DNA of 64,000 nt, from positions 41,155 through 105,154 of IMG/VR virus record IMGVR_UViG_3300031541_000022; one strand, 5' to 3'. The stretch comes from a virus. Shown one piece after another: positions 1,133-54,979 of this stretch. Each line of letters begins with the position of its first letter. Within the stretch, counting starts at the first letter, position 1. The position numbers and the translations under genes are program-made. Below the pieces are notes generated by a model. The model searched no databases, was not told the DNA's origin, and saw only the letters and a list, made by a program, of their open reading frames with translations.

Positions 1133-1139
1133 ATAAATA
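1133..1139 (+). promoter_or_regulatory. T4-late-like promoter, ATG 5 nt downstream (leaderless)
   Basis: ATAAATA-N5-ATG(1145), no SD. Confidence 0.7.
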
Positions 1140-1144
1140 TCGGT

Positions 1145-1627
1145 ATGGCAACGTATCAACAGGGCAATTATCAGCCTAAAAACGTAGAAAAGTACATAGG
1201 CAAGCATATTCCCAAGTACCGTAGTGGCTGGGAATTGCAGTTCATGCGTATGTGCGACAATCATCCTGCCATTTTACAATGGGCAAGTGAGAGTCATCGC
1301 ATCCCCTACATCAATCCAATTACAGGCAAACGCAGCAATTATATTCCAGACTTCTTTGTGATCTACATGGACAAGGAAGGCAAAAAACATGCTGAGTTGG
1401 TAGAGGTCAAGCCAAGCGGTCAAATGGTTGGTGAAGCTAAGGGTCAATATGATCAAGCCATGGCAGTGATAAACGAAGCCAAATGGCGTGCCGCCAGATT
1501 ATTTTCTAAACAAATGGGAATTGGATTCAGAGTAATAACTGAGCGTGAAATTTTCAATCGCCCACCCAAGAGCACTCGACAGAAAAAACCAAAAATTTCT
1601 AAAAGAAAGATAAATAAACGTAGCTAA
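1145..1627 (+). CDS. Head completion nuclease (T4 gp4-like, TnsA-type PD-(D/E)XK)
   Basis: YRSGWE...WASE...IPY...YIPDF...VEVKP motifs. Confidence 0.85.
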   Translation: MATYQQGNYQPKNVEKYIGKHIPKYRSGWELQFMRMCDNHPAILQWASESHRIPYINPITGKRSNYIPDFFVIYMDKEGKKHAELVEVKPSGQMVGEAKGQYDQAMAVINEAKWRAARLFSKQMGIGFRVITEREIFNRPPKSTRQKKPKISKRKINKRS

Positions 1628-1635
1628 AAGGAATT

Positions 1636-2426
1636 ATGCAAATGTTTTATGTTTATCTTTATATTGATCCAAGAAATCAAAAACCATTTTATGTTGGAAA
1701 AGGATCTGGTAATCGTATGTATGAACATTTGAACGAAACAATTGAAATAACAATTAATAAGCGTAAATTTTTCAGGATACAGTCTATTCTAAGACAAGGA
1801 TTGGAACCAATCATTCTTAAAGATCGTGATTTATTGTTGAGTCAGAAGCGTATGAATATGAAAAGTCCTTAATACAGAAATATGGACGAAAGGATTATGA
1901 CGAGAATGGTATCTTGACCAATATATCTTTAGATTCTAATCCACCAAATCGAAAAGGATGTAAATTAACTGAAGATCAAATTGAATCTATGCGTGGTCGA
2001 AAAATGCCTGAACATGTTCGACAAATGATGCTCGGAAGAATTCCTTGGAATAAAGGAATCCAGACTGGTCCGATGCCTGATAATGTGAAGGAAAAGATTG
2101 GCTCTGCTAATAAAGGAAAAACTCTATCTGATGAAACGAAAGAAAAAATTCGACAAGCCAGACTGGGCGTAAAAAAGTCTGATGAAACTCGACAAAAAAT
2201 GTCAAAAAATATGAAGGGACGGGTTCCTTGGAATAAAGGACAAAATGGTAAACAAAAATCATGGAAAAGACAAAAATGTGTATTTGTGTCACCAGATGGA
2301 AAAGAATATCAATTTGAATCACAATCAGAAGGATGTAAAGAATTAAATCTTCCACCTTCTAAGATGAGTAACGTTTTAACAGGAAAAATTGAAAACTACC
2401 ACGGTTGGACAGGATACAAGTTATGA
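1636..2426 (+). pseudogene. GIY-YIG homing endonuclease with NUMOD3-like tail, split by a -1 frameshift near 1830-1838
   Basis: FYVYLYIDPRN..PFYVGKG in one frame continues as ESEAYEYEKSLIQKYGR..ILTNI in the -1 frame; AT-rich. Confidence 0.75.
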
Positions 2427-2749
2427 GATTATTTGAGATATCTGATCAAAGTTATTATCATGTCGGAAAATTAAAATACAAAAACCAAATTTTGAAAAAT
2501 GGACTATTACCACAAAATATAAATGACTTAAATGAAGAACAACGACTTGATGAAGTAGGCGTCCTCAGCAGTTGGATTCAAGACCTCACCTACAAGAACG
2601 GTGACGTTATTATGACGTTGTTGAATGGACGCAGCTATAGAATTTTGGCAGTGCCTGAGGGTGTATACCGCTGGTGGATTAAAGCACCAAGCAAAGGTAA
2701 GTTTTGGCACAGTCACATCAGGGGCAATTACAGAGTGAGTAGATTATGA
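2423..2749 (+). CDS. KTSC-like domain protein with MRLFEI N-terminus
   Basis: SSWIQDLTY..G..Y..LAVPEGVY..WIKAPSKGKFW..HIRGNY resembles the KTSC pattern; ATG 2423 overlaps the upstream stop. Confidence 0.6.
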   Translation: MRLFEISDQSYYHVGKLKYKNQILKNGLLPQNINDLNEEQRLDEVGVLSSWIQDLTYKNGDVIMTLLNGRSYRILAVPEGVYRWWIKAPSKGKFWHSHIRGNYRVSRL

Positions 2750-3048
2750 CTAATAGAATGAAATCAACTCTATCAAATCTGACAGAAAACGAAAAGAGAC
2801 AACGTGTATTAAACTCATGCTGTTCACCAGAGTCATATACCAAAGAACGTTCTCAAAAAATTAGTCAGTCATTGACTGGTCGGAAGTTAACTGATGAATA
2901 TCGTAAGAAAATATCTGAAAACAAAAGAAAATTAGCTCAATCACTAAGTGAAAACGAACGGGCTGATCGTTATGGAAAACAAAATAAAGGACGAACTTGG
3001 AAACTTGTAGATGGCAAGAGAAAATGGTTTGATAAAGGTGGATACTAA
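2746..3048 (+). CDS. Homing-endonuclease DNA-binding remnant (no nuclease domain)
   Basis: NUMOD3-like KISQSLTGRKLTDEYRKKISE; C-terminus KGRTWKLVDGKRKWFDK nearly identical to that of the 4106 ORF. Confidence 0.55.
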   Translation: MTNRMKSTLSNLTENEKRQRVLNSCCSPESYTKERSQKISQSLTGRKLTDEYRKKISENKRKLAQSLSENERADRYGKQNKGRTWKLVDGKRKWFDKGGY

Positions 3049-3581
3049 TGACAAAGAAATTGTGTGAGACGTTTAATTTACCACCAATGGATCTACCTGA
3101 AGTAAAGGACGAAGATCTTGAGGAAGTTGAAGGTTATACAGAAGACCAAATGCATGAGATCATGGAACGAGCAGACAAAATTGATGCAGCACTTCCACAA
3201 GTTGGCGGACTAGACAATATTGATGCAGATTATGACGAGTATGCACGTAAGGCAATCGAGACATTTGACGATCTCGTTGACCTGGGTAAAAACGTTGAAG
3301 ACCGTCATGCAGCAGACATCTTTAATGCAGCTAGCAGTATGATGGGCAACGCCCTAAACGCCAAGACTAACAAAGCACAAAAGAAGCTAGAGATGGTCAA
3401 GTTACAAATACAAAAAGCCAAATTAGAACACGAAAACGAAAAGCTGGATTATCTCAAGAAGCGTCATCTCAAATCAGCTGACGGCGTTACACCTGAGGAA
3501 ACTGAAGGTCAGATCATTGCGACACGCAACGATATGCTCAACGGCATTCTCGCAGGCATAAAAAGAGACGATGACACATAA
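3048..3581 (+). CDS. Putative small terminase subunit
   Basis: Acidic N-terminus, helical DYDEYAR..FDDLVDLG core, coiled coil, TRNDML tail; upstream of the large terminase. Confidence 0.45.
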   Translation: MTKKLCETFNLPPMDLPEVKDEDLEEVEGYTEDQMHEIMERADKIDAALPQVGGLDNIDADYDEYARKAIETFDDLVDLGKNVEDRHAADIFNAASSMMGNALNAKTNKAQKKLEMVKLQIQKAKLEHENEKLDYLKKRHLKSADGVTPEETEGQIIATRNDMLNGILAGIKRDDDT

Positions 3582-3584
3582 ATA
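3578..3584 (+). promoter_or_regulatory. T4-late-like promoter
   Basis: ATAAATA, followed by SD AGGAG and ATG 3606. Confidence 0.6.
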
Positions 3585-3605
3585 CCATATAACCAGGAGA
3601 CTCCT

Positions 3606-6777: not shown

Positions 6778-6785
6778 TATAAATA
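6778..6785 (+). promoter_or_regulatory. T4-late-like promoter, leaderless
   Basis: TATAAATA-N5-ATG(6791), no SD. Confidence 0.7.
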
Positions 6786-6790
6786 TCATT

Positions 6791-8113
6791 ATGGTAACAG
6801 CGGTAGAAAACATTGCAGAACAACTATTCAAAACCATTAAAGGTTTTGGACACAACATAGTCATGTTTACAGATGACGGTAAAAAGACTGTAGACCCAAC
6901 AGAAGCACGCCGCTTCTATGCGAAGGATATTCGCATGATGGTCAATCTCATTGTTGATGAGACAACTAATGAGATTGTTGTTAACTTGAGCCAAGATACT
7001 GATCTTGAAGAGGTTAAGCCAATGTTGGCCGCTATAAGAAATCTAGCCAACCGTCACATTATTGAGTACACATTAAAGACATTTGGCAAAAATATTGAAC
7101 CCAGGGACTTCGCATACATGGCAAAAAATAAAGTAGATGAAGGCTTCAGCGGCTGGCATGGGTCAGCGCGTAAAAGCGTAAACGAACTAGGAGATGCCCG
7201 CATCATCGTCAAGCACAAACGCAGCGTTGACGAAGAGAAGCGCGGCGCCCGCACACGACAGATTGAAAGCATTTTCATTGAGAACGCAGAAGGTGAACGC
7301 TTTAAGTTTCCAAGCACAAACATCACCGCAGCTAAGGCAATGGCACGTCACGTACAAGAAGGCGGCGCACCATTTGATGACTTTGGTCAGCACATCTACG
7401 GTATCATGGAAGAGCTAAACCAACTCAAGAAATTCCACCGTAAGAGCAGCCGTAACGACTTCTTTGAAGATGCATCAGTAAATGAAGAGATTGGGTCACA
7501 CATCGGCAACCTACGCGGCAGCCTCAAGTCAATGTCAACACCACGAGGTTACAAAACTGCAATGGAAAGCTATGTCAAGGAGCAGGAAGATGTATCACAA
7601 GAGCGCATTGATGAGCTCAAGGATGCAGCTACAGTCAGCTACTTCGACGAGAGCATTGCAGACAGCCTACCATATGTTGCGCGTGTGATTGAGACAATGC
7701 GCGGACGTCAGGCTAAAGAAGCTGAGATCATGGACCTAGCACAATATGTGATGGACAACAAAGACAACATTCAGTTAAACTCACCAATTGACAATGCAGA
7801 TCCAGAAAGCCCAGCAGCACGTAGATTCCGTGATCCTGCAACAGCGTTTGCAGCATGGGTTACATACCTTGCACCAAAGATAAAGGACGACATGCTAGCT
7901 AACAAGCTAATGAAGGCAGCAGACTTTGTCCATGAGGTTGGTGACAAGCATTTGAGAATGGCTGCGGCGGCACTTAACGTGATCCGCCAAAAGGCACAGG
8001 TTGCGGAAGCAACCGACATTGGCGAAGAAAAAGTGGATGTCGAAGAGCAAGAAATAGCTAGAATCGACGAAACATTTGCTAAATACCACGTACAAAAGAT
8101 ATTCGGTGCTTGA
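6791..8113 (+). CDS. Hypothetical late (probable virion) protein
   Basis: Long ORF; start reassigned to ATG 6791 after the late promoter. Confidence 0.7.
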   Translation: MVTAVENIAEQLFKTIKGFGHNIVMFTDDGKKTVDPTEARRFYAKDIRMMVNLIVDETTNEIVVNLSQDTDLEEVKPMLAAIRNLANRHIIEYTLKTFGKNIEPRDFAYMAKNKVDEGFSGWHGSARKSVNELGDARIIVKHKRSVDEEKRGARTRQIESIFIENAEGERFKFPSTNITAAKAMARHVQEGGAPFDDFGQHIYGIMEELNQLKKFHRKSSRNDFFEDASVNEEIGSHIGNLRGSLKSMSTPRGYKTAMESYVKEQEDVSQERIDELKDAATVSYFDESIADSLPYVARVIETMRGRQAKEAEIMDLAQYVMDNKDNIQLNSPIDNADPESPAARRFRDPATAFAAWVTYLAPKIKDDMLANKLMKAADFVHEVGDKHLRMAAAALNVIRQKAQVAEATDIGEEKVDVEEQEIARIDETFAKYHVQKIFGA

Positions 8114-12009: not shown

Positions 12010-12038
12010 TTGACACCCCGAGGCACTTTGCTTATATT
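12010..12038 (+). promoter_or_regulatory. Sigma70-like (early) promoter
   Basis: TTGACA-17-TATATT, preceded by CTTTTTGG. Confidence 0.7.
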
Positions 12039-12064
12039 AATACTGTAAGCAAAGGAGATACCCC

Positions 12065-12496
12065 ATGCGCGAAGCACGTCAAACCCGAGTTATTGATGCA
12101 ACTGCACCCATTGCGTTGTTGGACGTTGACAGCGTTCTTGACAACAGCCAGTACCGCTGGTGTGCAGATGAAGTTTTTGCTGAGGACGGACGTTGCCTCC
12201 GTGATGACGAACTGACTTATGACCGGTTTGAATTTGGCCCGGAATACTTGGTGCCCGCAGGCAGCAAGATCAAGCTGCCTTATACTTGGGGTTATACTGA
12301 TGCAGGCATGAGCGGTGTTGTTGATTATGAAATCACTATCCCGCGGGCCGCAACTATGCAACATGTGGTGCACGTTATTCTCAGCGTATACCACGGTGAA
12401 CTGATGAAGCAAGCAGGCGGACATGGCCGCTTCTACTTCATTGAAGGAATTGAACGTGATGAGGATGGTGTTTACACTATCCATTTTGGAACCTAA
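12065..12496 (+). CDS. Hypothetical early protein
   Basis: SD AAGGAG; GC-rich codon usage. Confidence 0.75.
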   Translation: MREARQTRVIDATAPIALLDVDSVLDNSQYRWCADEVFAEDGRCLRDDELTYDRFEFGPEYLVPAGSKIKLPYTWGYTDAGMSGVVDYEITIPRAATMQHVVHVILSVYHGELMKQAGGHGRFYFIEGIERDEDGVYTIHFGT

Positions 12497-13348: not shown

Positions 13349-13377
13349 TTGACTCTACCAATGCCTTTTGCTAGGTT
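13349..13377 (+). promoter_or_regulatory. Sigma70-like promoter
   Basis: TTGACT-17-TAGGTT with GCTA at -10; near-copy at 46065. Confidence 0.65.
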
Positions 13378-13402
13378 GTATGGGTAAGCAATAGGAGACG
13401 TT

Positions 13403-14422
13403 ATGACACAAGTTGTAGTCAAGAACGGAAAATACGGTACCAAGCCCGTCAAGAACATGCAGTTCACGATGGCTATCCCTCCCAAGTTGGGTAAAAAGGG
13501 TCTGTATGTTACTGTTGACGGCGAACCGCTTGGCATGGACCGCAAGGTGCGGATTATGCTCGAAGCCGAGACTGATCTCACCTTCCTGCAGGACGGCAAC
13601 GATCCTGAGCCTGAGGCGAGCGCCAAAGAGAGCGACGAAGAGATCATGGATCGTATGCGCAAGAAGTTCGGTGTGCTGGACGGCATGACAATTGCAGCCG
13701 TTGAAGGCCATGTCCGCGCTATGATCGTTACTGGCCCTCCAGGCGTTGGCAAGAGCTTTGGTGTTGAGATGACACTGGAAAGCCTAGACGTCATGGACAA
13801 GGTCGCTGGTACCAACCTCACTGACGGCACAGGCACTGCCAAGCTGGGCGTTGAGAAGGTTGCAAGCGCGAGCGCAATTGGTTTGTACCAGCTGCTCTAC
13901 GAGTACCGTGCTAAGGGCAGTGTGCTGGTGCTGGACGACAGCGACAGCGTCCTCAACGACGAGGCTGGCATCAACATGCTCAAGGCCGCTACTGACAGTG
14001 GCAAGACCCGCAAGCTGACCTGGCGTACAGAGAGCCGTGTGCTCGTTGACAACGACATTCCTGAGCAGTTCAACTTCGATGGTAGTATAATCTTTATCAC
14101 CAACCTCGACTTTGAAAAGGCGCGGGGCAAGATTGGTCAACACTTGCAGGCGATTGTGAGCCGTTGCCACTACCTGGACATGGGCATCCATGACAGTCAC
14201 GAAAAGTTTCTGCGTTGCAAGCAGATTGTGCGTGATGGTATGCTGGAAGAGTACAAGTTCGAGGACTGGCAGATCGACGAGATCCTGACCTACATCGAGG
14301 ACAACCAGAAAGAACTGCGCGAACTCAGCTTGCGGATGGTCAAGAAGATCGCTGACCTTGCTAAGATGGATCCTACTGGCTGGCGTGACTACGCAGAGCA
14401 GACATGCTTGAGGGGTCGTTGA
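13403..14422 (+). CDS. AAA+ family ATPase
   Basis: Walker A GPPGVGKS, Walker B LVLDDSD, sensor-1 IFITN, R-finger SR. Confidence 0.8.
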   Translation: MTQVVVKNGKYGTKPVKNMQFTMAIPPKLGKKGLYVTVDGEPLGMDRKVRIMLEAETDLTFLQDGNDPEPEASAKESDEEIMDRMRKKFGVLDGMTIAAVEGHVRAMIVTGPPGVGKSFGVEMTLESLDVMDKVAGTNLTDGTGTAKLGVEKVASASAIGLYQLLYEYRAKGSVLVLDDSDSVLNDEAGINMLKAATDSGKTRKLTWRTESRVLVDNDIPEQFNFDGSIIFITNLDFEKARGKIGQHLQAIVSRCHYLDMGIHDSHEKFLRCKQIVRDGMLEEYKFEDWQIDEILTYIEDNQKELRELSLRMVKKIADLAKMDPTGWRDYAEQTCLRGR

Positions 14423-14823: not shown

Positions 14824-14852
14824 TTGACTTTCAAAGAGAAAAAGTGTATTAT
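14824..14852 (+). promoter_or_regulatory. Sigma70-like promoter, leaderless uvsW
   Basis: TTGACT-17-TATTAT-7-ATG(14860), no SD. Confidence 0.7.
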
Positions 14853-14859
14853 AATCAAC

Positions 14860-16374
14860 ATGCAAGCAAATATCGAGCTGCTCGATGAAGTGAACTGTAA
14901 GATTCACGGTTTATCAACGTCTACACGCAGAAAATTTTACGACAGATTCGCCTATATGATGCCTCATGCGTACCACACGCCGGCATATAAAATGGGCCGT
15001 TGGGACGGGAAGAAGAACTACTTTGCCATTGGTGGCAAAACGTTCAGCAACCTACTACCTGACATGTTAGAGGACCTCATTGAGGAAGGGTACGAAGTCA
15101 GTCTGATTGACAAACGTCCCGCCTATGAAATTGACCTCAACACAATTACAAAAGAACACTTTAGCCATAAGGTGTGGCCAGAGGATCATCCAGTTGCAGG
15201 GCAGCCTGTTGTACTGCGCGACTACCAAGTCGAGATCATTAACAACTTCCTCGAGAACCAAAAGAGCGTACAAGAGGTCGCAACGGGTGCAGGCAAGACG
15301 CTTATCACAGCCGCACTGAGCAACCTCGTTGAGACGTGTATGACTGACGAGCAGCTAGTGATGCACAAGCTAACGTCAGGCACAAACCTAGGGCGTACCA
15401 TTGTTATCGTGCCCAACAAGGGGCTGGTTACTCAAACAGAAGAAGACTACCACAACCTGGGCTTGGACGTGGGTGTGTATTACGGTGATCGCAAAGAGTA
15501 CGGGCACACGCATACCATCTGTACCTGGCAGAGCCTAGAGATCATACACAAGAACTTCCGTGAGGGTGTGAGCGATATGTCGCTGCAAGACTTTGCACAG
15601 GGCGTATTAGCTGTCATTGTTGACGAAGCTCACGGAGCAAAAGCAGACGTCCTAATGAAGCTACTCACAGGCCCGTTTGCTAACGTACCTATTCGCTGGG
15701 GTCTCACAGGCACGATCCCGCCCGAAGAACACGCTGCGGTTGGTCTAACGATCAGCTTAGGTCCAGTCGTAGGAGACCTAGCAGCTAAAACGCTACAGGA
15801 CGATGGCGTCCTCAGCAACTGCCATATTGACGTCGTACAGATGCAAGACGTGGTACACTACGACAACTACCAATCTGAATTAAGTTATCTCACAACAGAC
15901 AGCGACCGTCTCAATTACATGGCAGAAATGATCATGCAAATCGCTAAAGAGGGTAATACGCTGGTATTAGTAGACCGTGTCAAAGCAGGGAGGGGCCTCC
16001 TGGAAAGACTGCCTGAGGACCGCACAGTGTTTGTTAGTGGTGAGATGAAAAATGAAGATCGCCGAGGTCACTATAAGGAGATCTCAAAGGCTGACGATAA
16101 GATTATCGTGGCCACCTATGGCGTAGCAGCCGTAGGCATTAACGTTCCACGAATCTTTAATATGGTTCTCGTTGAGCCTGGCAAGAGCTTTATCCGTGTT
16201 ATCCAGAGTATTGGACGCGGGCTGCGTAAAGCGGAAGACAAAGATTTTGTTCGAATTGTTGATCTTTGTAGTAGTGCTAAGTTTTCAAAACGTCATTTGA
16301 CTGAACGTAAAAAATACTATCGAAAAGCACAATATCCATTTTCAATACAAAAAGTAGATTGGAAAGATAAATAG
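14860..16374 (+). CDS. uvsW: SF2 DNA helicase UvsW
   Basis: LRDYQ, ATGAGKT, VDEAH, GLTGT, QSIGRGLR; start reassigned to ATG 14860. Confidence 0.92.
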   Translation: MQANIELLDEVNCKIHGLSTSTRRKFYDRFAYMMPHAYHTPAYKMGRWDGKKNYFAIGGKTFSNLLPDMLEDLIEEGYEVSLIDKRPAYEIDLNTITKEHFSHKVWPEDHPVAGQPVVLRDYQVEIINNFLENQKSVQEVATGAGKTLITAALSNLVETCMTDEQLVMHKLTSGTNLGRTIVIVPNKGLVTQTEEDYHNLGLDVGVYYGDRKEYGHTHTICTWQSLEIIHKNFREGVSDMSLQDFAQGVLAVIVDEAHGAKADVLMKLLTGPFANVPIRWGLTGTIPPEEHAAVGLTISLGPVVGDLAAKTLQDDGVLSNCHIDVVQMQDVVHYDNYQSELSYLTTDSDRLNYMAEMIMQIAKEGNTLVLVDRVKAGRGLLERLPEDRTVFVSGEMKNEDRRGHYKEISKADDKIIVATYGVAAVGINVPRIFNMVLVEPGKSFIRVIQSIGRGLRKAEDKDFVRIVDLCSSAKFSKRHLTERKKYYRKAQYPFSIQKVDWKDK

Positions 16375-16397: not shown

Positions 16398-17324
16398 ATG
16401 ATGAAAAAACTAAATACTAAAACTTTTCTTGAAAGATTCATGGAAAAATATCCTAATAAATTGGGTTTGGACATGTCACACGTTAATTACATAGATATGA
16501 AAACTCCGGTCAAGGTTAGATGTATTACTCATAATGAAGTGTTCATGAACAATCCCCAAAGTCTATTGTATTCTGGATCTATTGGATGTAAAAAATGTAA
16601 ATCTGACAAGATATCAAATAAGAAGCGCAAGGTAACACCTGATGAATTTATGCGTAGATCACAACTAATTCACAATAATAGGTATGATTATTCATTGATT
16701 GAATTCAAAGGAACAAAAGATAAGGTGAAAATTATTTGTCCTGATCATGGTATTTTTGAACAGAATGTTCAAAGTCATTATAATGGATATGGCTGCCCAC
16801 AATGTGGATATAAAACATTGCGAAAATCAAATGATGATTTTATTGCTGAAGCAACCGCTATCCATAAAAATCGATATGATTATACAGCGGTTAATTACAT
16901 TAATAATTATTCAGACGTGGTTGTAAAATGTAAGACTCATGGAGCATTTTATATTTCACCCAAATCACATATCATCTACCAAAGAGGATGCCCAGATTGC
17001 TTTTCTGGAAATCGGTCTTGGAAAGAAATTTCTTGGTTGGATTCGATGAACGTCGATTTCGAAAACAGGCAGAAAGTGATCTATATTGATGGGCAACGAT
17101 TTTTAGTTGATGCTTTAGTTGGAGATGTTGTTTATGAGTTCTGGGGAGATTTTTGGCATGGCAATCCAGAAATTTTTGATCTAAATGATCGTAATGGGAA
17201 AAATGGAAAATTATTTAAGGAGTTGTATGAAATGACACAACAAAAACGCATCAAAATAAAGAATGCAGGTTTTCAATTAATTGAAATTTGGGAGAATGAA
17301 TGGGATAATATATGCGCATCTTAA
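16398..17324 (+). CDS. Free-standing endonuclease: Zn-ribbon repeats plus Vsr/PD-(D/E)XK-like nuclease
   Basis: Repeated YDY...K.KIIC..HG.F......H....GCP.C units; C-terminal VDA...VYEFWGDFWHG...IEIWE; AT-rich. Confidence 0.75.
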   Translation: MMKKLNTKTFLERFMEKYPNKLGLDMSHVNYIDMKTPVKVRCITHNEVFMNNPQSLLYSGSIGCKKCKSDKISNKKRKVTPDEFMRRSQLIHNNRYDYSLIEFKGTKDKVKIICPDHGIFEQNVQSHYNGYGCPQCGYKTLRKSNDDFIAEATAIHKNRYDYTAVNYINNYSDVVVKCKTHGAFYISPKSHIIYQRGCPDCFSGNRSWKEISWLDSMNVDFENRQKVIYIDGQRFLVDALVGDVVYEFWGDFWHGNPEIFDLNDRNGKNGKLFKELYEMTQQKRIKIKNAGFQLIEIWENEWDNICAS

Positions 17325-20586: not shown

Positions 20587-20593
20587 ATAAATA
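20587..20593 (+). promoter_or_regulatory. T4-late-like promoter, leaderless
   Basis: ATAAATA-N5-ATG(20599). Confidence 0.6.
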
Positions 20594-20598
20594 GGTAT

Positions 20599-21240
20599 AT
20601 GGCAATACGATATCCAAGAAAATGCAAATATTGTGAATATACTGCAAATAATGCAGCTATGTATCATTATCATAAAAAAACACATGAACCAATTCCAAAA
20701 GATAAACTTTGTGATTATGGGTGCCGTCAGCCTGCCAAATATCAAGGAACGGGCGGCAAATATACTTGTGAGTCTATTGGTAATAAATGCCCTGCTTTCT
20801 GAAAAAGGCAATCAGATCGTGTCAAAGAACAATGGAGAAATGACGATGGCTCTCGTATTGAAGCAACTAAAAAGTTATTTGAAGAGTTGGTGGTATTTAA
20901 TGATGACGCCCGCATCAAAAACTTAAAGGCAACAGCTAGCCGAAGAATTATCAAAGCAGAAGATACACGTGATTACCGATCATATGCACGTAAATGTCGT
21001 AGAGTTGCACAACAATGGGCAAAAGACAATGGATATGAAATAGGAAAACAGACATATCATATTGATCATCGTCTAAGTCTAGCGGATGCATATAACGCTA
21101 ATCTTGACGTTAGTGTAGCAAGTCATCCTGCTAATTTAAGAATCATTCCGGCAAAAGAAAATTCTCGAAAGGGCGCAAAAAGTGAAATATCACTTGAGAA
21201 TTTATTAGAAGAAATCAAAAGATATGACACGGTATTATAA
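20599..21240 (+). pseudogene. HNH endonuclease interrupted by an in-frame TGA at 20800-20802
   Basis: Tracked ORFs 20560 and 20887 share a frame and are separated by one TGA; Zn-finger N-terminus; HIDHRLS...HPANL...EN..KG C-terminus. Confidence 0.75.
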
Positions 21241-22277: not shown

Positions 22278-22282
22278 GCACC

Positions 22283-34227: not shown

Positions 34228-34256
34228 TAGACTTGTCAATGATTTCAGTGTATTAT
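34228..34256 (+). promoter_or_regulatory. Sigma70-like promoter, leaderless exonuclease
   Basis: TAGACT-17-TATTAT-7-ATG(34264), no SD. Confidence 0.6.
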
Positions 34257-34263
34257 TACTATT

Positions 34264-35527: not shown

Positions 35528-38500
35528 ATGAAAGATATCGATACCCGTGCCCTTATGGGGGAAGCCAAATTCTACGAAGGCTATAGCCGCTGGAGTGATG
35601 AATTAGACAGGTATGAGACGTGGGAAGAGAGTGTGGCCCGCGTTATGGATATGCATCGTGAATTTTACAAGGACAAGATGACTGATGATCTCTCAGTCCT
35701 TATTGACGAAGCAGAAGCACTTTACAAACTAAAATATGTATTGGGTGCTCAACGAGCACTTCAATTTGGTGGTGAACAGATCCTTAAGCACCAGATGCGT
35801 ATGTATAATTGCGGTGCGCAAGAAACTACCTTTGTAACAACAGAAGGTTTGAAGTCATTCAAAGATTATAATGATGGAGATAAGGTTACAGTAAAAACAC
35901 CACAAGGTAATTGGAAACCTGCAATTGTTCGTTCTTATGGTGAACAACAGCTAAATTCTATCACGCTTAAACGAAACAATGGAAAAGAAAAAAATGTCCG
36001 TTTTACAGCAGATCATAGATGGTTATTGAAGAACGGAGAAGTGACAACATCTTTGAAAGAGGGCGATAGGTTATACCATACTAAAAATACCTTCAATAAT
36101 TTTAATTTTGATACAGCAGAACCTGATGAAAAGCTATATTGGGCATATGGGTATGTATATGGTGATGGAACTATTAATAAAACACATAGTATGGTTCGCC
36201 TTTGTGGTAAAGATGTTGGGTATAAGTATAGATTTGAAGAACTAGGATTCAAAACATCAAGTAGTTTATCTCTAGATGGTGACGTAATTGCTTACACCGG
36301 AAAATACAAAAAAACACTTCCTGATACTAAAAAAGATGACCCACGGTTAACTCGCGCATTTGTTCGTGGTTGGCTTGACGCTGATGGGGAGAAAGCAGAG
36401 TCGCGATTTGATTATCATCAGTTTACTGGAATTCAGTCTTCTGATCCAGAAGCAATTAAATTCATCCGAAATTCCTTTCCGATTGCTGGTATATATCCAA
36501 CTAACGAAGTAGATAAAACTGGTGAAATTACAAATTATGGTGAAAGACCATACACTGTTCGATTTAGTTTTTCAGCAGTTACTGATTCCAAATTTGCAGC
36601 ATCTTGGCGCGTCGATTCAATTAAAAAAGACAGCGTTGAGACAGTTTGGTGTCTTGAGGTTGAAGATGATCATGCTTTTGTCATGGAAGCCGGAATACCA
36701 ACTGGAAATTGCACCAGTTCATACGCAGACCGCGCAGCCTTCTTTGGAGAACTATTTTATGTTCTACTATGTGGAGCGGGTGCAGGGTTCTCAGTTCAGA
36801 AGCATCACGTTGCGAAATTGCCAGGCGTGGCGCAGCGTAAGGGCCAAGCAAAAATCCACGAAGTAGAAGACAGCATTGAAGGCTGGGCAACTGCACTTGA
36901 CGTTCTCATGGCAAGTTTCTTCGTGGATGGTGGTAAGCACCCTGAGTATCAAGGACGTCGTGTTTACTTTGATCTTAATAAGGTACGTCCAAAAGGAGCG
37001 ATGATTTCGGGCGGATTCAAAGCGCCTGGTCCGGAACCATTGCGCAAAGCACTAGACAAAATCGAACATCTGGTCCAGGGTGCAGTGCTAGCGGGTCGTG
37101 ATTCACTCAAGCCGATTGAAGTGTATGATATTTGTATGCACGCCGCTGATGCTGTTTTGGCGGGCGGCGTTCGCCGTTCAGCTACTATTTGCCTATTCAG
37201 CCCAGATGATCAGGAAATGATTGCAGCTAAAACAGGCGATTGGTATATCAAGAATCCACAGCGTGGCCGTTCAAATAACAGTGCTGTTATCGTTCGTAAG
37301 GAAGCTGACCGCGAGCAGTTTGCTGATATTATGAATAGTATTCGTCAGTTTGGCGAGCCAGGCTTTGTGTTTACAGAGTCAACAGAACACACATACAACC
37401 CTTGTGTAGAGATTGGCAAGTATCCAGTCCTCATTGAGGGCAAGAAAAAGAAGAGCGGCTGGCAAGGCTGCAACCTAAGCGAGCTTAATGGCGCCAAGGC
37501 AACCAACAAGGAAGAGTTTTTCAAAGCTTGTCGTGTTGGCGCTATCCTGGGCACACTACAAGCAGGCTACACGGACTTTAAATTCCTCGATGAGACCAGC
37601 AAAAAGATCTTCGACCGTGAAGCACTAATTGGTGTGTCAATTACAGGGTGGATGAACTCACCAGACATTTTGTTTGATGAAAAGATCCTCAAAGAAGGTG
37701 CTGAGATTGTCAAGAAAGTCAACAAGCAAGTTGCAGCACTACTTGGCATCAACCCAGCAGCTCGTACAACATGTGTCAAGCCAAGTGGTAACGCAAGTGT
37801 CCTACTAGGCACATCAAGCGGTATCCACGGTGATCACAGCCCACGTTACCTACGTCACGTACAAATGAACAAGGACCAAGAAGTTGCACAGCTATTTGCA
37901 AATACTAATCCTTACATGGTTGAAGATAGCGTATGGTCAACAAACGGCACTGACTATCAGATTGCTTTCCCAGTTATTGCACCAAGTGATTCACTCTTTA
38001 AGCGTGAACTATACGGCACAAAGCTACTGGAAAAGGTTAAGCTAGTTCAGAACACCTGGGTTGAGCATGGTACAGACGAGTCACTATGTGTTGACCCAAC
38101 AGTACGACACAACGTTTCCAACACAGTGCAAGTTGCAAGTGATCAGTGGGATGAAGTTGAAGAGTATCTGTTTACAAACCGCGATAGCTTTGCAGGCATC
38201 AGCTTCCTAGCAGCAAGCGGTGACAAGGACTTTAACCAAGCACCATTTACAGAAGTGCTAACTGAAGAACAAATTGTTGAAAAGTATGGCCGTGCAGCAA
38301 TGTTTGCAAGTGGCTTGATTGTAGAAAGCTTCAAAGGCTTTGGTGATTTGTGGAGTGCGACATTTGCAGCACAAAACGAAGCAATGCAAAGCGGAGAGCA
38401 AAAGGACCAGGGTGCTGAATGGACTCGTCGTTTCAAGAAGTTTGCATCAAACTATTTTGAGGGCGACGAAAAGACGGCAGAATACTGTCTTAAGGATGTC

Positions 38501-38638
38501 TACTTGCTACATAAGTGGACAAAGATCCAACAAAATATGCAGCCAATTGACTTTAAGACCGGACTGTCAAAGAAATCTTACACAGACATTGACACAATGG
38601 GCGCTCAAGCTTGCGCTGCTGGTGGATGCGAAATCTGA
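35528..38638 (+). CDS. nrdJ: Class II (cobalamin-dependent, monomeric type) ribonucleotide reductase containing an intein
   Basis: YN/C, GGVRRSA, NPCVE, CNLSE, TCVKPSG and C-terminal CxxxxC (CAAGGC); no NrdB nearby. Confidence 0.85.
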   Translation: MKDIDTRALMGEAKFYEGYSRWSDELDRYETWEESVARVMDMHREFYKDKMTDDLSVLIDEAEALYKLKYVLGAQRALQFGGEQILKHQMRMYNCGAQETTFVTTEGLKSFKDYNDGDKVTVKTPQGNWKPAIVRSYGEQQLNSITLKRNNGKEKNVRFTADHRWLLKNGEVTTSLKEGDRLYHTKNTFNNFNFDTAEPDEKLYWAYGYVYGDGTINKTHSMVRLCGKDVGYKYRFEELGFKTSSSLSLDGDVIAYTGKYKKTLPDTKKDDPRLTRAFVRGWLDADGEKAESRFDYHQFTGIQSSDPEAIKFIRNSFPIAGIYPTNEVDKTGEITNYGERPYTVRFSFSAVTDSKFAASWRVDSIKKDSVETVWCLEVEDDHAFVMEAGIPTGNCTSSYADRAAFFGELFYVLLCGAGAGFSVQKHHVAKLPGVAQRKGQAKIHEVEDSIEGWATALDVLMASFFVDGGKHPEYQGRRVYFDLNKVRPKGAMISGGFKAPGPEPLRKALDKIEHLVQGAVLAGRDSLKPIEVYDICMHAADAVLAGGVRRSATICLFSPDDQEMIAAKTGDWYIKNPQRGRSNNSAVIVRKEADREQFADIMNSIRQFGEPGFVFTESTEHTYNPCVEIGKYPVLIEGKKKKSGWQGCNLSELNGAKATNKEEFFKACRVGAILGTLQAGYTDFKFLDETSKKIFDREALIGVSITGWMNSPDILFDEKILKEGAEIVKKVNKQVAALLGINPAARTTCVKPSGNASVLLGTSSGIHGDHSPRYLRHVQMNKDQEVAQLFANTNPYMVEDSVWSTNGTDYQIAFPVIAPSDSLFKRELYGTKLLEKVKLVQNTWVEHGTDESLCVDPTVRHNVSNTVQVASDQWDEVEEYLFTNRDSFAGISFLAASGDKDFNQAPFTEVLTEEQIVEKYGRAAMFASGLIVESFKGFGDLWSATFAAQNEAMQSGEQKDQGAEWTRRFKKFASNYFEGDEKTAEYCLKDVYLLHKWTKIQQNMQPIDFKTGLSKKSYTDIDTMGAQACAAGGCEI
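35810..36709 (+). mobile_element. 300-aa LAGLIDADG intein in RNR
   Basis: Begins with C (CGAQETTF), block B TADHRW, LAGLIDADG helices YGYVYGDG and RGWLDADG, ends TGN/C; AT-rich relative to the exteins. Confidence 0.9.
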
Positions 38639-48549: not shown

Positions 48550-48976
48550 AAATTCGGTGTATACCGTTACACCGCCGGACCTCACCCTTAACACGATTGG
48601 TCCCAGTGTCTTGCTCTTGGGCATTACATATGATGAGAGCAAAGCATACTCAGATGTATATGAAAAACTTTTTCCTGAAGTTGAAATCACATTCTTTGTG
48701 AGTGAGACTGGCTTCAATCCAAATGTTGCTCCTTGGTTCCGCGCAGTTGCAGGAATGGCGAGCAGCATATTTGTAAACCTAGACAACATCACAGCAGAGG
48801 AAGTATTCCTTGCTATGCAAGCTGAACATGAGAACCGTGCTATGGTTTTCTGGATCAGCCAAGAGCGAACCTATCCAGCGATGGTGAGTTTACTCAACAG
48901 TTACCAATACCAAGTTTTCAATAACGTAGAAGAGATTGAATCCTTCTTGCTAAAAGAGCATGGTAAAAACTCTTGA
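48539..48976 (+). CDS. Hypothetical protein
   Basis: Coupled ORF. Confidence 0.7.
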   Translation: MKTKNSVYTVTPPDLTLNTIGPSVLLLGITYDESKAYSDVYEKLFPEVEITFFVSETGFNPNVAPWFRAVAGMASSIFVNLDNITAEEVFLAMQAEHENRAMVFWISQERTYPAMVSLLNSYQYQVFNNVEEIESFLLKEHGKNS

Positions 48977-49001
48977 CATTCGGGTGCAGACATACTACAC
49001 T
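48973..49001 (+). promoter_or_regulatory. Sigma70-like promoter for infC-rpsU
   Basis: TTGACA-17-TACACT. Confidence 0.7.
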
Positions 49002-49040
49002 GAATGACATAGTTGTATTCAGAGGATTAGACCTATTAAT

Positions 49041-49562
49041 ATGAAACAACAGCGAGAAATTATACTCGCTAACCGTGACATTCGATTCAAGGAAGTTCGT
49101 TTAGTTACGGAAGCTGACAGCAAGGTGCTGTCAACGAATGAAGCATTGAGGCAAGCTGAAGACGCTGGCTTAGATCTTATTTTGATCAACGCTAGCGCCA
49201 AGCCTCCTGTTTGTAAGATCTTGGAATTGAACAAGTATCGTTACGAACAGAAACTAAAAGCGAAAGAAGCTGCACGGGCGCAGCGTGAATCCCGTACCAC
49301 TATCAAAGAGGTACAATTCAAGCCCAATATCGATCAACACGACTTCGAAACGAAGTGTAAGAAAATTGCTAAGTTTATCGACAAGGGCAACAAGGTTAAG
49401 GTTTTAATTCAATTTCGTGGTCGCGAACGCCAACACACTGATTTGGGATATGACATCCTAGAAAGAGTATTCCAGGAAGTTGACGGTATTGAATACGATG
49501 CAAAACCCTCTTTTGCTGGTAACCGTATTACCGCAATGTTAAAAGGAACCAAGGATGGCTAG
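49041..49562 (+). CDS. infC: Translation initiation factor IF-3 (possible ATT start at 49035)
   Basis: [24 protein letters not shown]...KYRYE, KEVQF.P.ID.HDF..K, KVK....FRGRE. Confidence 0.92.
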
Positions 49563-49800
49563 GCCAACACCAAATCAAAAGAAAACACAAAGCGGACCGC
49601 GCGGCTCAAGAGTCGAAGTCCGTGATAACAATGTAGGGCAGGCAATGCGCCGCCTAAAGAAGATCCTCCAACAGGAAGGTGTCTTCAAAGAGATGCGAGA
49701 ACGCCGTTACTTCGAAAAGCCAAGCATGACACGCAAAAAGGCTAAAGCAGCGGCTCGCAAGCGTTGGCTTAAGGAACAGGCCAAGCGCGAAAACTGGTAA
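49555..49800 (+). CDS. rpsU: 30S ribosomal protein S21
   Basis: [17 protein letters not shown]....EG...E...R.YFEKPS...K..A.RKR. Confidence 0.88.
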
Positions 49801-49811
49801 TAAATACCAGC

Positions 49812-49864
49812 AGGATGCCTTAGGGGTCCTATAAAAATCTTGCTTTTAAAAGGAGATTAAGATG
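49812..49864 (+). ncRNA. ROSE-like RNA thermometer in the hsp20 5' UTR, behind late promoter ATAAATA 49800-49806
   Basis: 5' hairpin 49812-49830; 3' hairpin AATCTTGCTT/AAGGAGATT pairs the UUGCU motif with the SD and leaves G49842 bulged. Confidence 0.75.
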
Positions 49865-50290
49865 ACAAAAGCAATTAACACACTAACTCTACCGAGCTTC
49901 CTCAATGACAGAGGTATTGGATTTGACAACTTTCTTGACACATTCGAGACACTCACTCCAAGCGGTGGATACCCTCCATACAACGTGATTAAAGACGGCG
50001 ACGACGAATACACTATCGAAGTTGCAGTTGCTGGCTTTACACAAGACGATCTGGAGATCACACAGGACGGCAAAAAGCTAATCCTATCTGCAAACAAGCC
50101 AGAGTTCGAAGGCGAAGAGCCTGCATACTTGCATCGCGGCATCAGCTCACGTAGCTTTAAGCGTGAGTTTGCACTTGCAGAACATGTAACAGTCACTGGT
50201 GCTGACCTCAAAGATGGCATCCTCAAAGTTTCATTACTACGTGAATTGCCAGAAGAAATGAAGCCACGCACCATCGCTATCGGCAAATAA
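49862..50290 (+). CDS. hsp20: Small heat-shock protein (Hsp20/IbpA-like)
   Basis: YPPYNV, IEVAVAGF, YLHRGIS.RSF.R.F.LA, A.L.DGIL. Confidence 0.93.
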   Translation: MTKAINTLTLPSFLNDRGIGFDNFLDTFETLTPSGGYPPYNVIKDGDDEYTIEVAVAGFTQDDLEITQDGKKLILSANKPEFEGEEPAYLHRGISSRSFKREFALAEHVTVTGADLKDGILKVSLLRELPEEMKPRTIAIGK

Positions 50291-50360
50291 TTACTGAGCG
50301 ATCATCAGTACCACTGTGGGAGGTGGCTACCACTACCTCCCACAACCAAAAGAGGGCAAT

Positions 50361-50660
50361 ATGTCAGCAGACGCAGACGTAGTCGAAAAAACACAAACCA
50401 AACTCAAGCGTCCACGTAAATGGGCGGTGATTGTACATAACGATGACGTAACTCCAATGGACTTTGTTGTTGGGTTGCTCTTTTACGTATTTAAAATGAA
50501 CCTTGATGAAGCTACAGGACTGATGCTCAAGGTACATCAAGAAGGCCAAGCAGTGGCTGGCATCTTCTCCCATGAGGTTGCAGAACAAAAGCTTGCGGAA
50601 GCCAATGTGTTCATCCGTTTGAGCAACATGCAACTGAAGTTGACTATGGAAGAAGAATAA
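50361..50660 (+). CDS. clpS: ClpS N-degron adaptor
   Basis: VIVHNDDVTPMDFVV...A..LML.VH..G.A..G; start at ATG 50361. Confidence 0.9.
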   Translation: MSADADVVEKTQTKLKRPRKWAVIVHNDDVTPMDFVVGLLFYVFKMNLDEATGLMLKVHQEGQAVAGIFSHEVAEQKLAEANVFIRLSNMQLKLTMEEE

Positions 50661-50661
50661 C

Positions 50662-50687
50662 GCTCGCATAAATATACACATGCGAGC
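50662..50687 (+). promoter_or_regulatory. Late promoter in the loop of a hairpin that sequesters the ATG; leaderless
   Basis: GCTCGCAT(50662-69)...ATGCGAGC(50680-87) perfect 8-bp IR; ATAAATA 50668-74, N5, ATG. Confidence 0.7.
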
Positions 50688-52077
50688 CTTAGAATTTTTA
50701 CTATCAGAAGAACAGGTGACTGAATCGCGCGGCGTAAGTGCAAGACAGCCTGGTGACGTATATGTCAACCCAAACAGCCCTGACGATACACTCACTGTTA
50801 TCGATATCAAATTTGTGCGACCAGAAAACGACTACGCATTTGACAGTCGTGAAGAACTGGAAGGCGCACTAGACCAAGTCATCCCCTCAGACATGAAGCG
50901 TGTAAATGACAACGCAGCTAACAGATTAAGTAAGGCTGCAATTGTTGCTGAGTTTGAACGTCCTGATGGTAGCAAGGAAGCCCATGTCCGTTATGCCAAG
51001 GATCTTATGTCTATGCATAACAAATGGAAGGCTCCAAATGGTTATAAATTCCAAGCAGCAATTGAAACTGAAAGCTTGCCAATCAAGCCAAGCGACATCA
51101 TTCCAGATGAACAGCCACGCAAATTGCTAAAATTGCTTGATGTTATCGATCAAAACCTACGCACCAAGCTAGCAGGCACTCCATATGAACATATGGGTGA
51201 CTTGATTGAACAGGTAATTGACAGCGCAGCAGGTAGCAACAAACCTATTACATTTGAAAACCGTAACCAAGCAGGCATCATTGCAAAATATGCTGGCGAG
51301 TATGCAGGTGTGGTTGCGTTGCTTACCGATAACCTACAAAACCTCAGCAGTGCTGAAATTGAAGAACGTTATGGCGTAAGCAACCTGTCAGATAGTCGTG
51401 TTGTGTTTCCACAAGACAGCACAGGTATGTTGATTGATAGCTATCTCATTACTCCCGAAGACAAGCGTATTGGCGTGAGCAGCAAAATGTTTAAAGCTGG
51501 TGGTGCAGCTAGCAGCCTACTAGGTATCTACAAGATCATGCCACCTGACGTTGCAAAACAATATCCTAAAGGTGCAACTATCATTAAGGACTTGTCTGTG
51601 ATGCCTAGCTTCTCAGTTAGCCCTAAAAATGCTAGTAACCTTGGCCCAGTCATATTGGCACGCCAAATGGGAATTATCAGCGCAGAAGACATTGAAGAGA
51701 TCGAACGCCTATCCCGCCACGAACAAAATCCAGAGGTAATGCAAAGCCATCGACTCAAGCAAATTATTGCTAACCAAGGTGTAAACCCTGGCACTATGAG
51801 TCGACCAGACTACTCTGTCTATAACCATCTTATTGCGGCGATTGTCAACCTCATGGTATCACGAGTCAATAACGAACCTGAATTTGTTGATGTGATTAAC
51901 GCAACACTACGTGAAAACGGATATGTGCAGGTGCTAACCAAGGTTGGCCTCAAGGGTAACCAGGTTACGTTTACCTATTATGGCAAGTTGCCAGACGACA
52001 ATCAACCATTCATCTACAACAAAAATTATTTCGCTACAGGCAATAAAGGACGTATTGGTTTCAAACTCAAGAAGTGA
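50680..52077 (+). CDS. Hypothetical probable head-packaged protein
   Basis: MRALEFL...VTE/SRG N-terminus; late promoter. Confidence 0.75.
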   Translation: MRALEFLLSEEQVTESRGVSARQPGDVYVNPNSPDDTLTVIDIKFVRPENDYAFDSREELEGALDQVIPSDMKRVNDNAANRLSKAAIVAEFERPDGSKEAHVRYAKDLMSMHNKWKAPNGYKFQAAIETESLPIKPSDIIPDEQPRKLLKLLDVIDQNLRTKLAGTPYEHMGDLIEQVIDSAAGSNKPITFENRNQAGIIAKYAGEYAGVVALLTDNLQNLSSAEIEERYGVSNLSDSRVVFPQDSTGMLIDSYLITPEDKRIGVSSKMFKAGGAASSLLGIYKIMPPDVAKQYPKGATIIKDLSVMPSFSVSPKNASNLGPVILARQMGIISAEDIEEIERLSRHEQNPEVMQSHRLKQIIANQGVNPGTMSRPDYSVYNHLIAAIVNLMVSRVNNEPEFVDVINATLRENGYVQVLTKVGLKGNQVTFTYYGKLPDDNQPFIYNKNYFATGNKGRIGFKLKK

Positions 52078-53803: not shown

Positions 53804-53842
53804 TCACTCTGCTAAAACAATAGTCGCAGTAGGGAGCGACAA

Positions 53843-54001
53843 ATGTTTGAAGTTATCATCCAAAAGAACGATGGAACCAAAGAAACGTGGGATTGTCTCA
53901 CGGAAATACAGGCTGAGTGTGTGTTCTTTCGCGCACGTATGATGAACACCACAGCACAAGTGCAAATCAACGAGGTGATTGAGTTTGACATCATTAGCTG
54001 A
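53843..54001 (+). CDS. Untracked 52-aa hypothetical protein
   Basis: SD GGGAG; MFEVIIQKNDGTKETW... Confidence 0.55.
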   Translation: MFEVIIQKNDGTKETWDCLTEIQAECVFFRARMMNTTAQVQINEVIEFDIIS

Positions 54002-54422
54002 ATCATTTGGCTATGTGCCTATGCGTGTTGATCTCATTATGACTCTGCTCCGTATCCAAGCAGAAAAGGTATTAGATCAATCCAAAAACCACACAGTATT
54101 TGAGCGAATTGAATATTTGACCTATATTGAAAAACAGCGTATTGAACCCGATCGATTTCAAAATGTTTATATGACGGTTTTGTTCATACAGTATTCAAAA
54201 CCACATCTCAAGCGTATTCAAAAATTGACAGCAGAAGATCTTGCTCAAATGTCAAAATCATCTGTATATACAGCAAACTCTATTATTAAACTTACTGGCA
54301 GGAATCCGGTTTATCTTAAAGACCGTGATCTCGGAACTCGTGGTAATATTGACGCCGAACAAAGCCGCGATATTTTTAACGCAGACCTCAATAAGTGGAT
54401 GAAACACTTCCAGGCACGATAA
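53979..54422 (+). CDS. Hypothetical protein (start uncertain)
   Basis: Fills the gap on the coding strand. Confidence 0.55.
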   Translation: MSLTSLAESFGYVPMRVDLIMTLLRIQAEKVLDQSKNHTVFERIEYLTYIEKQRIEPDRFQNVYMTVLFIQYSKPHLKRIQKLTAEDLAQMSKSSVYTANSIIKLTGRNPVYLKDRDLGTRGNIDAEQSRDIFNADLNKWMKHFQAR

Positions 54423-54457
54423 ATACTAGACCCAATAGGGGGAAAAGGAGATTTATC
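54418..54457 (+). promoter_or_regulatory. Late promoter complementary to the sequence just before the ATG
   Basis: GATAAAT(54418-24) pairs with ATTTATC(54451-57); ATAAATA 54419-25. Confidence 0.5.
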
Positions 54458-54649
54458 ATGTTTGACGCAATTTGGGCTTGGCTAATGGCTCGCTGGGCAG
54501 AACGCACAACCTGGGATGGTACAGTAATCATCGGTCTAGGTGTTGTGGTGCTTGTATTCCAATCACTACTACCTTGGGCAGCATGGGGCGCAATCGCTTA
54601 CGGTGTTTGGACCTTACTCAAGTCAGAAGGCATCCTTCCTAAGGAATAA
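54458..54649 (+). CDS. Small two-TM membrane protein
   Basis: SD AAGGAG; ERTTWDG followed by two hydrophobic helices. Confidence 0.7.
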   Translation: MFDAIWAWLMARWAERTTWDGTVIIGLGVVVLVFQSLLPWAAWGAIAYGVWTLLKSEGILPKE

Positions 54650-54650
54650 G

Positions 54651-54755
54651 ATGAAACCTGGCACTTATAAAAAACTGAAGCACGAATTCGGACAGCTCAT
54701 TTTCTGGGCGATTGTGTTCGGAATCGTGCTTCTTGGTCTTGCATTGTTTGCATAA
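54651..54755 (+). CDS. 34-aa single-TM peptide
   Basis: SD AAGGA; basic N-terminus plus hydrophobic helix. Confidence 0.55.
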   Translation: MKPGTYKKLKHEFGQLIFWAIVFGIVLLGLALFA

Positions 54756-54763
54756 ATAATTGC

Positions 54764-54979
54764 ATGGCAGCAAACGGTATATCAACACTAGAATTTAAGC
54801 GTGACCGTCAGGACGCAAAGCTTGCACTTGCGGCAGTTGATCGTCTGGCCACAGGCCGCCGTAGCAATCCTGATCCAACACAACTACCAACACGCTACGG
54901 CGTTGGTAGCAACGATCCAAACGATATTGTAAATAACCCTAACGCAGGCGGACTTGTTACAGGTCGTTCTTGGACATAA
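54764..54979 (+). CDS. Small late protein (leaderless)
   Basis: ATAAATA(54752-58)-N5-ATG; MAANGISTL... Confidence 0.7.
   Translation: MAANGISTLEFKRDRQDAKLALAAVDRLATGRRSNPDPTQLPTRYGVGSNDPNDIVNNPNAGGLVTGRSWT

Follow-up and report, generated by a model that had tools for sequence, protein, structure and literature searches.

Late-promoter boxes five nucleotides before start codons suggest a leaderless class of genes in a large T4-related phage

Late-promoter boxes at gene starts

The 64,000-nucleotide stretch of DNA described here (the window) spans positions 41155–105154 of a 110,390-bp IMG/VR contig (IMGVR_UViG_3300031541_000022, G000 below; CheckV completeness ~30%), the DNA of which came from a coral metagenome run. 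The contig belongs to an uncultured T4-related phage. The window carries a T4-like gene set, which includes genes for a gp4-type head-completion protein, the portal and virion proteins as well as for a UvsW-like helicase, a primase, an exonuclease and a class II ribonucleotide reductase. The nearest portal proteins are those of Pseudomonas phage PA5oct, Sinorhizobium phage Phosso and Agrobacterium phage Atu_ph07 (~52–54% identity), and the class II reductase is nearest to the enzyme of Rhizobium phage RHph_I1_18. A number of genes of this phage start exactly 5 nucleotides (nt) downstream of a box, (A/C)TAAATA, with the core of the T4 late promoter, so closely that the transcript would probably begin with the start codon. 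We call such sites fused, and they are the subject of this report.

The original prediction had claimed seven (A/C)TAAATA-N5-ATG sites in the window, and all seven are present. The first (1133–1147, plus strand; ATAAATA, the spacer TCGGT and ATG) opens the gp4-like head-completion gene (1145–1627; PHROG 218, head closure, 2e-39), and the second (ATAAATA, 6779–6793, plus) opens a virion structural protein gene (6791–8113; PHROG 13484). A third ATAAATA box (20587–20601, plus) precedes a 67-aa open reading frame (ORF; 20599–20802) that the original prediction had taken for a pseudogene and that has no family match and no homologue in the four relatives discussed below. Two boxes on opposite strands form a divergent fused pair (22275–22329) that serves the genes at 21897–22277 (minus) and 22327–22764 (plus). 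The intergenic region of this pair is 49 nt long (22278–22326), each box lies 5 nt from its own ATG, and there is no space for a leader or a Shine-Dalgarno (SD) sequence. The remaining two sites, both ATAAATA on the plus strand, open a 465-aa gene (site 50668–50682; gene 50680–52077), which begins 19 nt past clpS, and a 71-aa gene (site 54752–54766; gene 54764–54979), which lies immediately 5' of the transfer-messenger RNA (tmRNA) gene and gave no match in a family search. Four more TAAATA-N5-ATG sites are located beyond the window, at genome positions 15724, 29513, 105726 and, on the minus strand, 28091. The genes at 1145, 6791, 20599 and 50680 start ~15–20 nt after the preceding gene. Boxes of this type on the contig precede virion genes (head completion, structural, baseplate hub-like and tail fibre-like). 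Three homing/HNH endonuclease genes are also found downstream of TAAATA boxes (genome 15724–16257, plus; genome 26166–28091, minus; window 16398–17324), and two of these three are fused.

The box itself is well defined. At position −12, 48 of 75 sites have A and 21 have C, the positions upstream of the box are near random with no conserved −35 region, and T at −13 is not conserved, as is also the case in RB49, KVP40 and Aeh1 (PMC1524935). The T4 late box occupies −13 to −6 (PMC1524935), and a 5-nt spacer therefore sets the A of the ATG at +1; the geometric argument of the original prediction, that each ATG falls on the predicted transcription start, is correct in this respect. The contig also contains a gene for a gp55-like late sigma factor (genome 5771–6664), which matches PHROG 12791 at 1e-86 and PHROG 234 at 1.5e-22 and is found by RHph_I1_18 gp55 in a tblastn search at 7e-8.

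The frequency of the arrangement is far above expectation. The seven TAAATA-N5-ATG sites of the window compare with 0.98 ± 0.98 in 100 dinucleotide-preserving shuffles, none of which reached seven. In a histogram of TAAATA-to-ATG distances over the whole 110-kb contig, 12 cases fall at 5 nt, and other spacings average 1.97 (Poisson P ~1e-6). Eleven of these 12 ATGs mark the 5' limit of an ORF of 60 aa or more, and 23% of all ATGs open an ORF of this size. In a scan of all hexamers at all offsets ahead of first ATGs, TAAATA at 5 nt ranks first (10 seen, 0.7 expected), ahead of Shine-Dalgarno hexamers such as AGGAGA. The combination TAA-ATA-N5-ATG is five times as common as any other TAA-NNN-N5-ATG. 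The possibility that the TAA of the box is the stop codon of an upstream gene was considered and rejected: it ends an ORF of at least 60 codons in 12 of 69 boxes. TAAATA is AT-rich, and T4 has 10 matches at chance level, so that an artefact of base composition had to be weighed. Such an explanation is effectively refuted by the shuffles, by the Poisson probabilities (2e-19 in the relative G005), by the low counts of reversed-pattern controls, by the position of the sites at ORF starts and by the geometry kept in orthologues.

The distances from box to gene start fall into two separate groups. Thirty-six boxes lie no more than 70 nt from a called start: 10 are at exactly 5 nt, none is at 0–4 or 6–14 nt, 18 are at 15–40 nt, mostly with an SD, and 8 are more than 40 nt away. 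The spike at 5 nt is the one that the original prediction expected for the late box, and the empty zone at 6–14 nt in G000 fits the avoidance of 1–5-nt leaders by leaderless mRNAs. Fused sites make up 28% of the boxes near gene starts in G000 and 48% in G005. Since virion structural genes and homing endonucleases are found in both the fused and the SD-led layout, the TAAATA box appears to act as one late promoter with two uses.

Two further features of the fused sites resemble those of a transcription start. Bacterial RNA polymerase prefers to start at a purine at +1 that follows a pyrimidine at −1. A pyrimidine precedes the ATG at 62 of the 69 fused sites with a 5-nt spacer (pooled from G000, G001, G003, G004 and G005), compared with 214 of 409 SD-led ATGs (Fisher P = 8e-10), and its presence at this position would direct initiation to the A of the start codon. 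All five contigs have the 5-nt spike at ATG and none has it at TTG; GTG has no such spike either, save for a weak rise in G001 (5 cases). The restriction to ATG fits the preference of leaderless mRNAs for AUG (PMC8459731).

Relatives, control genomes and a second promoter type

The four relatives are uncultured phage contigs and are fragments. The number of TAAATA boxes exactly 5 nt from an ATG is 13 in G001 (145 kb), 9 in G003 (93 kb), 7 in G004 (92 kb) and 28 in G005 (415 kb, 55% GC), which has a further 19 boxes at 4 nt. In T4, the 5-nt count is 10 against a background of 5.6, which is not a spike, and the TATAAATA box peaks 21–29 nt before the ATG. The cultured phage RHph_I1_18 gives a weak signal (6 sites, 1.1 expected), and a few of its sites with a 5- or 6-nt spacer coincide with annotated starts (9112 and 85354 on the minus strand, 62523 and 96838 on the plus strand); its homing endonuclease gene (84611–85354, minus strand) likewise starts at TAAATA-N5-ATG. 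Counts of TAAATA-N5-ATG in PA5oct, Phosso, Atu_ph07 and GAP32, which were picked as cultured jumbo relatives by portal similarity, are near the control level, with no enrichment. The promoters reported in the PA5oct paper are of the TTGAC/TATAATA type only.

The geometry is retained by orthologues while the surrounding sequence changes. Among 15 close gp4 orthologues in IMG/VR, 13 keep xTAAATA-N5-ATG with variable spacer and upstream sequence, one has TAAGTA-N5 and one has changed to an AAGGA-led start. This last orthologue (L019, IMGVR_UViG_3300049811_000117) has lost TAAATA-N5 and carries AAGGA 9 nt before its ATG; it is a natural switch between the fused and SD-led layouts. The gp4-like gene has the fused geometry in G001, G003 and G004 as well. 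The same three relatives keep TAAATA-N5-ATG at the virion protein gene (6791), the N-terminus of which is conserved from Met1, and preserve both genes and both geometries of the divergent pair. The geometry of the 465-aa gene is kept in these three too, and in the G001 orthologue (L006, 76% identity) the spacer is different; the alignments of all these proteins start at Met1. Many fused genes, among them those at 208250, 261543, 263684 and 267401 of G005 (the G005 loci are L043–L062) and that at 50680 of the window, encode proteins with an N-terminus of the type Met-Arg-(Asp/Glu/Ala)-(Phe/His/Leu), possibly the mark of a family of paralogues or of a targeting signal.

A second, unrelated promoter type abuts start codons in this phage. 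As claimed in the original prediction, three replication genes of the window, all on the plus strand, start 7 nt after the −10 hexamer of a host-type early promoter: the UvsW-like helicase gene (TTGACT-17-TATTAT, 14824–14862; gene 14860–16374, with ResIII and Helicase_C domains), the primase gene (TTGACA-17-TACACT, 22748–22786; gene 22784–23800, PHROG 47) and the exonuclease gene (TAGACT-17-TATTAT, 34228–34266; gene 34264–34941, PHROG 298). These fused sites, like those of the late box, have neither an SD nor a leader; all that stands between promoter and ATG is 5 nt for the late box and 6–7 nt for the host type. The helicase promoter has the same hexamers and the same 17/7 spacing in G001, G003 and G004. 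The hexamers and the 17-nt spacing are also kept in the other two, with a final spacer of 6, 7 or 8 nt in relatives for the primase and of 7 nt in G001 and 6 nt in G003 for the exonuclease. Pooled over ORF starts of the five contigs, the distances from host-type promoters to the ATG have peaks of 12 cases at 6 nt and of 10 at 7 nt, 0–3 cases at each of the distances 0–5 and 8–14 nt, and a broad hump at 24–32 nt; T4 has the hump and no case at 6–7 nt. In promoters of the sigma-70 type, 16–18 nt separate the two hexamers, and in E. coli the preferred transcription start lies 7–8 positions after the −10 hexamer. That two unrelated promoter types have their predicted +1 on the ATG is the strongest argument that the transcription start, and not a signal in the mRNA, would be the constraint.

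Start codons were called too far upstream at such genes, as the original prediction had also proposed; this is borne out for the TTG starts at 6728, 14824, 20560 and 22748. Two of these TTGs, at 14824 and 22748, open −35 hexamers, and an in-frame stop codon is located immediately before that of the helicase. Each is 36 nt (6 + 17 + 6 + 7) ahead of the ATG and hence in the same frame, which is why the helicase and primase were called as starting inside their own promoters. The longest-ORF start of the virion gene at TTG 6728 is probably wrong as well. For annotation this means that longest-ORF callers extend fused genes upstream, even as far as the TTG of a −35 element, which the 17/7 spacing always puts in frame.

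Some early promoters are SD-led and share a common module, which consists of TTGACA, GCACTTTGCT, TATATT, GTAAGCAAAGGAGA and ATG (window 12010–12067 and 13349–13405; genome 34006). In this module, a CTTTGCT/AGCAAAG inverted repeat brackets the −10 hexamer and extends into the SD. The repeat could be an operator or an RNA hairpin.

Readings of the fused geometry and the role of IF3 and S21

The most likely interpretation of the data is that this phage divides its genes between two layouts. In the classical layout, an (A/C)TAAATA or −35/−10 promoter would be followed by a 15–40-nt leader that bears an SD. In the fused layout, the late box stands 5 nt, or the host-type −10 hexamer 6–7 nt, ahead of the ATG, and transcription is predicted to begin at the A of this codon. 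The mRNA would then start with AUG, to which ribosomes would presumably bind at the 5' end, as they do in leaderless translation. The benefit could be that an SD-less ATG is translatable only on a transcript that starts there, while the same ATG inside a read-through RNA would be silent, so that translatability would become a property of the promoter used. Read-through is plausible, because four of the fused genes start only ~15–20 nt after the preceding gene, and the presence of homing endonucleases among the fused genes is consistent with the logic of silent read-through known for I-TevI of T4. The division into two layouts draws on the spacing spike, the empty zone between 5 and 15 nt, the geometry of orthologues, the pyrimidine at −1, the restriction to ATG, the involvement of two promoter types and the gp55-like sigma factor. 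Thus, of the split into leaderless and SD-led genes put forward in the original prediction, the existence of a promoter-abuts-ATG class beside an SD-led class is strongly supported in silico, and the leaderless character of the former is a prediction from its geometry.

Several observations weigh against a leaderless interpretation or limit its force. The gp55-like protein (297 aa) is only a distant relative of T4 gp55, and the start-site numbering of T4 may carry over to this phage inexactly. A gp45 query from RHph_I1_18 had no tblastn match in the ~30% contig, and no gp33 was identified either, though the small size and divergence of this protein put it beyond such a search. The predicted energy of unfolding of the 5' region does not differ significantly between fused and SD-led genes (medians of 1.8 and 2.3 kcal/mol, P = 0.21). 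A look-up of sequencing runs listed no RNA run that contains the window or a G005 stretch rich in fused sites. The 4-nt class of G005 mostly has G at −1, which would correspond to a 1-nt leader or a shifted start and does not follow the pyrimidine/A rule. Some of the G005 sites share an N-terminal motif and are possibly paralogues, so the counts are not fully independent, and the relatives are kin to one another and thus not independent samples. Finally, the gene calls come from the author's own simple caller.

The box could instead function in the mRNA. TAAATA (−11 to −6) would then be an AU-rich substitute for the SD, or an operator of the kind bound by RegA, on leadered or polycistronic RNA, and the fixed spacing would reflect the geometry of the ribosome or the repressor. 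The box is indeed located where an SD usually sits, read-through into several fused genes is plausible given their 15–20-nt distance from the upstream gene, and T4 RegA binds AU-rich start regions (PMC3014915). However, the same heptamer is found 15–55 nt before SD-led virion genes, from where it would be unable to act at the start codon, and its spacing at fused sites, 5 nt only in G000, is tighter than that of SD sequences. Translation offers no rationale for the pyrimidine at −1, which matches the start preference of RNA polymerase, and the unrelated promoter type abuts the ATG too, at preferred sigma-70 start distances. Furthermore, the divergent ATGs are 49 nt apart, and leadered transcripts would have to begin inside the opposing gene. 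An mRNA signal is therefore unlikely to account for the sites.

Slightly less likely still is a by-product of compaction, in which the boxes are real promoters that serve downstream genes and the protein at the ATG is made from read-through RNA by translational coupling or 70S scanning. The genome is tightly packed and many of its other genes use TAATG or ATGA coupling with no SD. Compaction, however, predicts neither one exact spacing, the use of ATG only and the 6–14-nt gap, nor a spacer that keeps its length while its bases change. On neither strand does a gene lie upstream of the divergent pair, and the overlap of the box with a stop codon is confined to the 12 of 69 cases given above.

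The original prediction went on to propose that the phage tunes the two classes with its own translation factors. The infC–rpsU unit (48973–49800, plus strand) is SD-led: downstream of a TTGACA-17-TACACT promoter come a 39-nt leader that contains AGAGGA, the IF3 gene (49041–49562) and the S21 gene (49555–49800). Both genes are real and intact; the IF3 gene encodes the IF3_N and IF3_C domains, and the S21 gene overlaps it. An AUU start for infC, as in bacteria, was considered, because an ATT is found here at a good SD spacing, and was dropped since G003 differs. The IF3 protein belongs to a family of 171–178-aa proteins (60–75% identity) on metagenome contigs of up to ~353 kb, which are probably related large phages.

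A role for these factors in setting the balance between leaderless and SD-led translation during infection has some attraction. Both genes are intact and placed behind a host-type promoter, and the large contigs on which related IF3 proteins are found are probably those of phages. Leaderless translation responds to the dose of IF3 and to the occupancy of ribosomes by bS21: raised IF3 inhibits leaderless mRNAs (PMC9031893), and ribosomes without bS21 favour the leaderless mRNA of lambda cI (PMC10491246). Thermus phage phiYS40 pairs its leaderless middle and late mRNAs with a shift in initiation factors, IF2 up and IF3 down (PMC3594737). The E. coli literature thus has extra IF3 or full bS21 disfavouring leaderless mRNAs, so the direction of the effect is opposite to a simple boost, and also opposite to the phiYS40 case. 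The proposal fails on distribution: G001, with its 13 fused sites, has S21 and no IF3 at the syntenic site; G005, which has the most fused sites (47), has S21 and no IF3 in 415 kb; and S21 is carried by PA5oct, Phosso and Atu_ph07, all of which lack the TAAATA-N5-ATG enrichment. An IF1 gene, sought in the relatives as a helper of leaderless initiation, was not found, and none of the four tRNA-Met(CAT) genes inspected in G003 and G005 has clear initiator features. Tuning by the phage IF3 and S21 is accordingly improbable, and the two appear to be real early genes with no specific tie to the fused promoters. A different role would be that of a timer or gate, in which early IF3 and S21 increase the discrimination against 5'-terminal AUGs and so hold back host leaderless genes and the fused genes until late transcription. 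This idea is a long shot; if it were true, the two layouts would be read differently as factor levels change, and temporal control would operate through the mode of ribosome recruitment.

The IF3 and S21 genes belong to a cluster in the window that also contains the tmRNA, ClpS and Hsp20 genes. The Hsp20 gene is located downstream of a TAAATA box with a 55-nt leader, and the ClpS gene is next (window 49800–50660). The tmRNA (54981–55321; tag ANENFAPTGYALAA), found near IF3 and S21, is of the two-piece alphaproteobacterial type, and the host is for this reason probably an alphaproteobacterium. In Caulobacter, a member of this class, ~17% of mRNAs are leaderless (PMC8459731). The relatives carry many tRNA genes: 34 in G003, located at 77473–92208, and 52 in G005, in several clusters. 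Elsewhere in the window, the 1036-aa class II reductase (35528–38638) aligns to the RHph_I1_18 enzyme in two pieces (71% covered), which suggests an inserted element, e.g. an intein.

Comparison with known systems

No description of T4-type late promoters fused to start codons was found in the searchable literature. Provided that transcripts begin where predicted, a clade of large T4-related phages makes a quarter to half of its late promoter units leaderless, by a combination of a gp55-type promoter with leaderless mRNA that T4 does not use. Leaderless initiation would then be a major route to late proteins in hosts that use Shine-Dalgarno sequences, and it would give the phage a simple means to make translation depend on which promoter fired.

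Late promoters of the T4 family (TATAAATA, −13 to −6) are recognised by gp55 together with gp33 and the gp45 clamp, and the boxes described here share their core. The late box of Aeh1 is a variant, CTAAATA, which is one of the two forms of (A/C)TAAATA in the present phage. Like T4 late promoters, the G000 boxes have no −35 region, precede virion genes and are accompanied by a gp55-like sigma factor (PMC1524935). The difference is in the distance to the gene: in T4, the box is 21–29 nt before the ATG with an SD leader and no 5-nt spike, whereas 28% of boxes in G000 and 48% in G005 are fused.

Clustered sets of translation genes are known from huge phages. Among the translation genes of large phages, which include those for bS21 and initiation factors, G000 carries S21 and IF3, with no specific tie to its fused promoters. 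Transcripts that begin with AUG are established for lambda cI (expressed from pRM) and for the middle and late genes of phiYS40 (PMC3594737; PMC10491246), whereas those of G000 are predicted. Lambda cI and phiYS40 use sigma-70-type or Thermus promoters, and the G000 phage uses a gp55-type late box. In phiYS40, leaderlessness covers whole temporal classes and goes with changes in initiation factors; in G000, it would affect a large minority of late genes that stand beside SD-led ones. PhiYS40 lowers IF3, whereas the G000 phage adds an intact IF3 gene, and IF3 does not co-vary with the trait.

The closest functional parallel is in T4 itself. For e, soc, 49 and I-TevI, only the transcript from the late promoter is translatable (PMC3014915), and the same logic is proposed for G000. 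The means would differ: in T4, a hairpin that sequesters the ribosome-binding site is absent from the late transcript, whereas the fused genes of G000 have no ribosome-binding site and the 5'-terminal AUG would serve instead. In both phages, homing endonucleases are among the genes concerned (PMC3014915 for T4).

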